Origin: Escherichia coli
GTDB lineage: Bacteria; Pseudomonadota; Gammaproteobacteria; Enterobacterales; Enterobacteriaceae
DNA length: 64,000 nucleotides
Direction: 5' to 3' (one strand)
Assembly: GCF_041886205.1 (NCBI RefSeq)
Contig: NZ_CP169029.1
The position numbers and the translations under genes were made by a program. Position 1 is the stretch's first letter; every line of letters begins with the position of its first letter. Positions 62,008 to 62,126 of this stretch are shown piece after piece. The notes beneath the pieces were generated by a model, which saw only the letters and a program-made list of their open reading frames with translations, was not told the origin of the DNA and made no database searches.

Positions 62008-62126
62008 GTGGGGGGCCGCCTACGGCGGCCATACACAATGGACTTTGTAGGCCTGATAAGCGAAGCGCCATCAGGCATTGCGGCCCCAAACACCGAATGG
62101 CGGCTGCGCCTTGTCCGGCCTACAGG
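62008..62126. repeat. REP-type palindrome cluster at the right edge of the island
   Basis: ggccgcctacggcggcc hairpin, then gtaggcctgataagcgaagcgccatcaggc and gccttgtccggcctacag REP units between the giant ORF stop and the xseA 3' end. Confidence 0.55.

Follow-up and report, generated by a model that had tools for sequence, protein, structure and literature searches.

The palindromic repeats at the right-hand end of the sinH-sinI-adhesin island of Escherichia coli raise the question of what they are: the trace of the event by which the island was inserted or exchanged, or members of a common repeat family that lie in the non-coding space between two genes. The window examined here, a stretch of 64,000 nucleotides, is 100% identical to the chromosome of E. 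coli LHM10-1, and in the RefSeq annotation its gene order at this locus is der, yfgJ, a sinH pseudogene, sinI and a gene for an adhesin of 2683 amino acids, followed by xseA on the opposite strand. The adhesin gene (53949-62000, plus strand, from the open reading frame list) is RatA-like, is named 'adhesion domain-containing protein' in RefSeq, and is the last gene of the island, with its TAA stop at 61998-62000; its product carries the Pfam domains InvE_AD and BIg21 in nine stretches each. xseA (62120-63496, minus strand, from the same list and RefSeq) encodes the large subunit of exonuclease VII, 458 amino acids long, and ends in a TAG stop at 62122-62120. The Pfam domain Exonuc_VII_L comprises residues 126-439 of XseA, so the tail of the protein next to the repeats lies outside the domain. 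Between the two convergent stops is a gap of 119 nt (62001-62119). The island between xseA and yfgJ is itself already known as the 'ila' cluster sinH-sinI-ratA (GR17), related to Salmonella CS54 (PMC12928451).

The neighbourhood of the gap shows other features which are recorded here in their own right. The sinH gene, coding for an intimin-like inverse autotransporter, is a RefSeq pseudogene at 50622-52796 with an internal stop in this strain, and the adhesin island may therefore be partly inactive in it. A perfect 17-nt inverted repeat (GGTTTTATCATTTGTAT and ATACAAATGATAAAACC, 5 nt apart) is located at 50429-50467, within the 209 nt of AT-rich sequence that separate sinH from the yfgJ stop, and could be a terminator of yfgJ or a regulatory site of the island. 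Beyond the right end of the window, after guaA (L001 17579-24305), the same strain carries a tyrosine recombinase gene, IS5075, a truncated Tn3 transposase and a frameshifted ISEc52; these elements lie between guaA and yfgH, and yfgI is truncated by them.

The gap itself contains a 7-bp GC hairpin and two REPs, one of the Z type and intact, the other of the Y type and decayed. That two REP-like units are present had been proposed in an earlier note on this DNA, and the proposal is upheld both by matches to the REP tail motif and by alignment to a known BIME. The tail motif CTTATCMGGCCTAC has four matches in the window against 0.40 expected, and four or more were obtained in none of 100 shuffles. 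Two of the four fall at the gap, an exact match on the minus strand at 62047-62060 and a match with one mismatch on the plus strand at 62110-62123. The first unit, REP1 (62047-62079, plus strand), is an intact Z-type REP in which GTAG at 62047-62050 is followed by a palindrome at 62051-62076, and it matches CTTATCAGGCCTAC exactly on the minus strand. It folds as DNA at -9.0 kcal/mol (z -3.9) into a 7-bp stem, an AA/C bulge and a 3-bp upper stem, and can be aligned with the Z REP at window position 26510, with a Kluyvera REP and with the Z half of Rfam naRNA4.

The second unit, REP2 (62092-62123, minus strand), is a Y-type REP that reads GTAGGCCGGACAAGGCGCAGCCGCCATTCGGT on the minus strand, with one mismatch to the tail motif. 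It retains GTAGGCCGGACAAGG and its 3' arm is eroded; taken alone, it forms a hairpin no better than those of shuffled sequence (z -0.48), for which reason it is regarded as a decayed REP. Its position is that of the intact Y REP lying on the xseA stop in other island-positive genomes, and the two are thus homologous by position. The xseA stop is contained in the GTAG of REP2 (62123-62120), so that the overlap with the 3' end of xseA that had been noticed earlier is real, but extends over 4 nt only. REP1 and REP2 are inverted, head to head, with arms that are 87% complementary over 15 nt. Between their heads is a 15-nt linker, ATTGCGGCCCCAAAC (62077-62091), which can be aligned with the corresponding linker in the Rfam naRNA4 / BIME model and resembles the sequence following the Z REP at 26540-26556.

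The GC hairpin, also pointed out before, was recovered as a 7-bp stem at 62014-62030 within a locus-specific element at 62008-62036. Its core stem pairs GGCCGCC (62014-62020) with GGCGGCC (62024-62030) around the loop TAC, starts 13 nt after the adhesin stop, and folds as DNA at -10.5 kcal/mol (z -3.5). The 46-nt segment to which it belongs (62001-62046) is present in single copy and is confined to the nine genomes with this junction; no relatives of the hairpin were found elsewhere in E. coli, and a metagenome scan gave the same haplotype only. The hairpin has no T-run following it and is, for that reason, not terminator-like. The gap as a whole folds beyond shuffled sequence on both strands, at -62.9 and -63.0 kcal/mol (z -3.2 and -3.9, respectively).

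REPs have been described as imperfect palindromes of 20-50 nt preceded by GTAG, and BIMEs as two REPs of inverse orientation with a variable linker between them (PMC8266576); the consensus of the REP family is given as …CTTATC(C/A)GGCCTAC (PMC12306157). In both REP1 (plus strand) and REP2 (minus strand) GTAG stands directly 5' of the palindrome, and the mismatches to the consensus number none and one, respectively. The bulged stem expected of enterobacterial group 2 REPs is seen in REP1, and that of REP2 is eroded; REPs of this group are also characterised by recognition and cleavage by TnpA(REP). The cluster is extragenic, the 4 nt of GTAG being all that overlaps the stop of xseA, and its two inverse REPs, 15 nt apart, can be aligned to a standard BIME located between yghA and exbD, two convergent genes, with 82.6% identity to 62036-62124 (89 nt). 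With its GTAG tetranucleotides and inverse REPs the cluster agrees with the published definition and is accordingly one somewhat decayed BIME unit. Were the palindromes instead chance GC-rich sequence unrelated to REPs, the poor folding of REP2 alone would be readily accounted for, but the enrichment of the REP motif in the window, the alignment of a known BIME over 89 nt and the conservation of a REP at the xseA stop across genera all argue against it, and we give this explanation practically no weight.

The labels Y, Z and BIME-2 are provisional; they come from aligning this unit with the Rfam model and with the BIME between yghA and exbD, and partly from the Gilson/Bachellier nomenclature. 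The idea that the motifs are unique, and not part of a genome-wide family, is contradicted by 5422 of the 5426 complete E. coli genomes, which have matches to the family at a median of 6 places (E<=1e-3). The window has a second BIME at 26442-26556, consisting of a Y REP, a 35-nt linker with an IHF-like AATTCAACAAATTG, and a Z REP, and the other two matches to the tail motif are located in it, at 26461-26523. Its GTAG/CTAC ends face each other, unlike those of the xseA cluster.

Analysis of the region against Rfam gave no match at gathering score, and only a sub-threshold match to naRNA4 together with a spurious miRNA match. On the minus strand, REP2, linker and REP1 can be aligned from end to end with the naRNA4 model RF02564 (Y-linker-Z) at 25.7 bits (E 0.008), and on this basis it could be supposed that the BIME encodes an naRNA4-like nucleoid-associated small RNA. 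We consider this very improbable, as the score is far below the gathering score of 59.5 and no promoter-like site was seen in a scan of 61800-62400. The yghA-exbD BIME, a generic one, fits the same model better, at 68.1 bits, so that the match at this locus means only that the sequence is BIME-like. The difference between 25.7 and 59.5 bits also indicates that the BIME unit is eroded, and it may be only partly functional.

Another reading is that the cluster serves chiefly to stop or attenuate transcription and so to insulate the two convergent genes from each other, either by factor-dependent attenuation of the BIME type or as a hairpin roadblock. Strong structure on both strands and the position between convergent genes are both in keeping with this, as is the transcription attenuation associated with BIMEs that is credited to Espeli et al. 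2001 within PMC8266576, and in another haplotype (MEC2025-PR, L009) runs of A and T lie on either side of the equivalent palindrome, in the manner of a bidirectional terminator. The scan of 61800-62400 for intrinsic terminators on both strands, on the other hand, gave no site and no T-run after any hairpin. A principal role in transcription stop or attenuation is on balance unlikely, though less so than the other alternatives considered here. Gyrase binding is a further published property of BIMEs, according to references given in PMC8266576.

The proposal that the cluster marks the integration scar of the island requires that island-positive and island-negative genomes be compared. The earlier note had suggested this comparison at the xseA 3' flank, and had taken the same cluster in island-negative genomes as the outcome that would speak against a scar. 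That outcome was not observed. The identical cluster is found only in island-positive genomes: it is present in nine of the 5426 E. coli genomes and in two island-positive metagenome contigs. Approximately 1750 of the 5426 genomes are island-positive; in the 3668 island-negative ones the yfgJ stop shares 4 nt (TTAA) with that of xseA, leaving neither a gap nor a REP. Many Citrobacter, Enterobacter, Yokenella and other species have this 4-nt overlap as well, and because it is so widespread across genera it looks ancestral.

The limits of the sequence that differs between the two kinds of genome do not coincide with the repeats. Sliding identity to an island-negative genome is 46-65% over the last ~180 nt of xseA and 88-100% further upstream, so that roughly the last 60 codons (62120-62300, minus strand) constitute an island-linked variant of the xseA 3' tail. 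The corresponding protein tail, 'GDGVV(I/V)SEVS', is the type that occurs with the island in both Escherichia and Pseudocitrobacter, and 'DGW(V/I)ESE' is found everywhere else. On the left side divergence starts at the der stop and spans all of yfgJ, and the island-linked block therefore includes a yfgJ allele of its own. The spacer between der and yfgJ and the 5' half of yfgJ (50134-50412) are almost unalignable to island-negative E. coli, from which YfgJ also differs throughout its N-terminal half. At this locus the variable block thus has the der stop as one limit and a point ~180 nt into xseA as the other, and as divergence reaches the interior of xseA and the der stop, the REPs lie inside the block and not at its edge.

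It could still be argued that the cluster is an integration or recombination scar, left by REP-mediated insertion or exchange of the sinH-sinI-adhesin block. The REPs are absent from all 3668 island-negative genomes (which have no gap to hold them), the REP content varies among island haplotypes, with gaps of 119, 80, 68, 59 and 53 nt, and the window matches strain GF4-3 in its adhesin allele as far as the stop, beyond which the two sequences part abruptly, exactly where the cluster begins on the left. Set against these points are the positions of the breaks, one at the der stop and the other ~180 nt into xseA, and the lack of any REP at the left junction or at the empty site, which is simply the 4-nt TTAA overlap. 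The features expected of an att-type scar were likewise not found. No direct repeat of at least 8 nt is common to the left and right island junctions, and inverted 9-mers are shared no more than expected by chance (33 of 200 shuffles); the tRNA search found none, and the RefSeq annotation has no integrase between yfgJ and xseA.

The two features are also separable in other genera. In Citrobacter sp. MGH106, C. gillenii and another Enterobacteriaceae genome the island adjoins xseA with a gap of only 7-18 nt and no REP, while island-negative Kluyvera ascorbata has a 124-nt gap between xseA and yfgJ with a full BIME, and REPs or BIMEs are located between the same genes in island-negative K. georgiana and two further Enterobacteriaceae. 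REPs seem to colonise the convergent gap at xseA wherever one exists. For these reasons the scar is in our opinion an unlikely origin of the cluster; the boundary of the island should not be placed on the REP repeat, and this lead can be closed. A permissive REP regular expression, applied to 77 species loci, produced matches in coding sequence that were plainly false, and reliance was therefore placed on the strict GTAG-tail motif and on direct reading of the gaps.

Inserts of other kinds were also seen at this site. Many Enterobacter, Lelliottia, Kosakonia, Klebsiella and Trabulsiella genomes (L019, L021, L022, L025, L028, L053 and others) have an insert of ~1.4 kb between xseA and yfgJ with an open reading frame that starts M..HSYSVIPPYILRRII, and other genomes have inserts of 1.2-2.7 kb there. 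The variety of these inserts across genera indicates that the xseA-yfgJ gap is an insertion hotspot in Enterobacteriaceae. The 'Citrobacter sp.' metagenome-assembled genome HRGM_Genome_0066 gave three different xseA loci (L009, L066 and L082), two of them island-positive and Escherichia-like and one Citrobacter-like, which suggests that it is a mixed bin.

Comparison of the island-positive junctions with one another proved informative in helping to understand the history of the repeat. In the Nissle/SCU-485 type and in APEC E16002 the gap is 68 nt long and holds a Y REP whose GTAG gives the TAG stop of xseA. MS 69-1, with a gap of 59 nt, has the same Y REP less 9 nt and an xseA stop that is now TAA; the deletion there comprises exactly the GTAG of the REP and the five bases with which its stem starts (L004 2960-2990 compared with L002 5990-6015), and the stop has shifted to the TAA within CTTAT. 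MEC2025-PR has a gap of 53 nt with a simple GCCTGATA…TATCAGGC hairpin that contains a TGA stop, and GF4-3 a gap of 80 nt with two Y-type REPs. A REP with its GTAG on the xseA stop was found in SCU-485, APEC E16002, GF4-3, E. coli E69, Escherichia sp. E1V33 and a Pseudocitrobacter metagenome-assembled genome, the last three having in common the motif '…AAYCCGTAG' followed directly by GCCGGATAAGATGCGCCAGCATCGCATCCGGCA. Island-positive E. albertii and E. coli SCPM-O-B-8794 have a short non-REP hairpin only. Judged from these alignments, the REP on the xseA stop is, where present, old and inherited with the island-linked block.

Among these junctions that of the window is an outlier, with an eroded Y REP, a different linker, a Z in place of a Y REP, and an extra hairpin. 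Strain GF4-3 is otherwise near-identical to it, and the difference between them takes the form of a mosaic patch of ~550 bp (62001-62546), the left edge of which is at the adhesin stop. Identity is 97-100% through the adhesin gene to the stop at 62000, drops to 45-73% over 62001-62246, is 90-91% over 62247-62546, and returns to ~100% beyond 62546. No close donor of the hairpin or of the patch was found among 88 loci, the best matches being 88.5% and 91.5%. A break between haplotypes as sharp as this one, at the adhesin stop, would be compatible with some part of the repeat in recombination.

Considered together, the gap is very probably one ordinary enterobacterial BIME unit plus a unique GC hairpin, acting as a 3'-end element, and not the recombination scar of the island. 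The element lies in non-coding 3' sequence that is found only where yfgJ and xseA are held apart by the island. The Y REP on the xseA stop is in this reading an old resident of several island-linked haplotypes, shared with further island-positive Escherichia and with Pseudocitrobacter, and in the rare haplotype of the window the gap was remodelled, with a Z REP in place of a Y, a different linker and an additional hairpin. Transcribed in either direction, the palindromes may fold into stable stem-loops that end both convergent mRNAs, and such 3' stem-loops could impede 3'-to-5' exonucleases. Deletion of a 3' REP is reported to shorten mRNA half-life (PMC12306157). The earlier suggestion of a 3' stabiliser for both transcripts is therefore plausible by analogy, as it would fit the published roles of REPs (PMC12306157, PMC8266576) as well as the strong folds on both strands.

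The distance of the element from the two stops may also be of consequence. REPs not more than 15 nt from a stop are said to stall ribosomes, with cleavage of the mRNA (Liang et al. 2015, as cited in PMC12306157), and PMC12306157, in summarising that work, places 260 of 496 E. coli REPs in this stop-proximal class. With structure at the xseA stop itself and 13 nt past the adhesin stop, the element would belong to the same class, which is reported to stall terminating ribosomes and lower translation. Since a conserved island-linked REP supplies the xseA stop, it could alter the level of exonuclease VII through ribosome stalling, and the break between the window and GF4-3 at 62003/62004 suggests that the edge of the REP cluster may let adhesin alleles and xseA tails shuffle independently. 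That the stop REP does set a different exonuclease VII level in island-positive strains by stalling, and that the REP edge is a preferred crossover point, is nonetheless rather unlikely. The cluster is a routine member of a long-known repeat family. What remains of mild interest is the conserved REP-supplied stop of xseA and the haplotype break at the edge of the cluster, and the island-positive haplotypes in which a REP supplies that stop offer a natural test case for regulation by stop-adjacent REPs.

In relation to known systems, the locus has the same genes and the same position between yfgJ and xseA as the published 'ila' island. It differs from it in being a rare allele (9 of 5426 genomes) with a sinH pseudogene and a junction sequence of its own. 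With naRNA4 / REP325 (RF02564) the unit shares the Y-linker-Z architecture and an alignment over the full length of the model; however, its score is far below the gathering score, and it is known here as sequence only. In form the unit resembles the E. coli REP/BIME family, of the BIME-2-type Y-linker-Z arrangement, with which it has in common GTAG and a bulged palindrome, inverse REPs, a short linker and a 3' extragenic site between convergent genes. Unlike typical E. coli BIMEs, it is a single unit and not a tandem array, its Y REP is eroded, it overlaps a stop codon by 4 nt, and it is accompanied by a unique GC hairpin. The stop-proximal REPs of Liang, Rudd and Deutscher 2015 are comparable in their distance from coding sequence, which is zero for xseA and, for the GC hairpin, 13 nt past the adhesin stop; the locus described here differs from them in that the stop codon of xseA is itself part of the GTAG of the REP.
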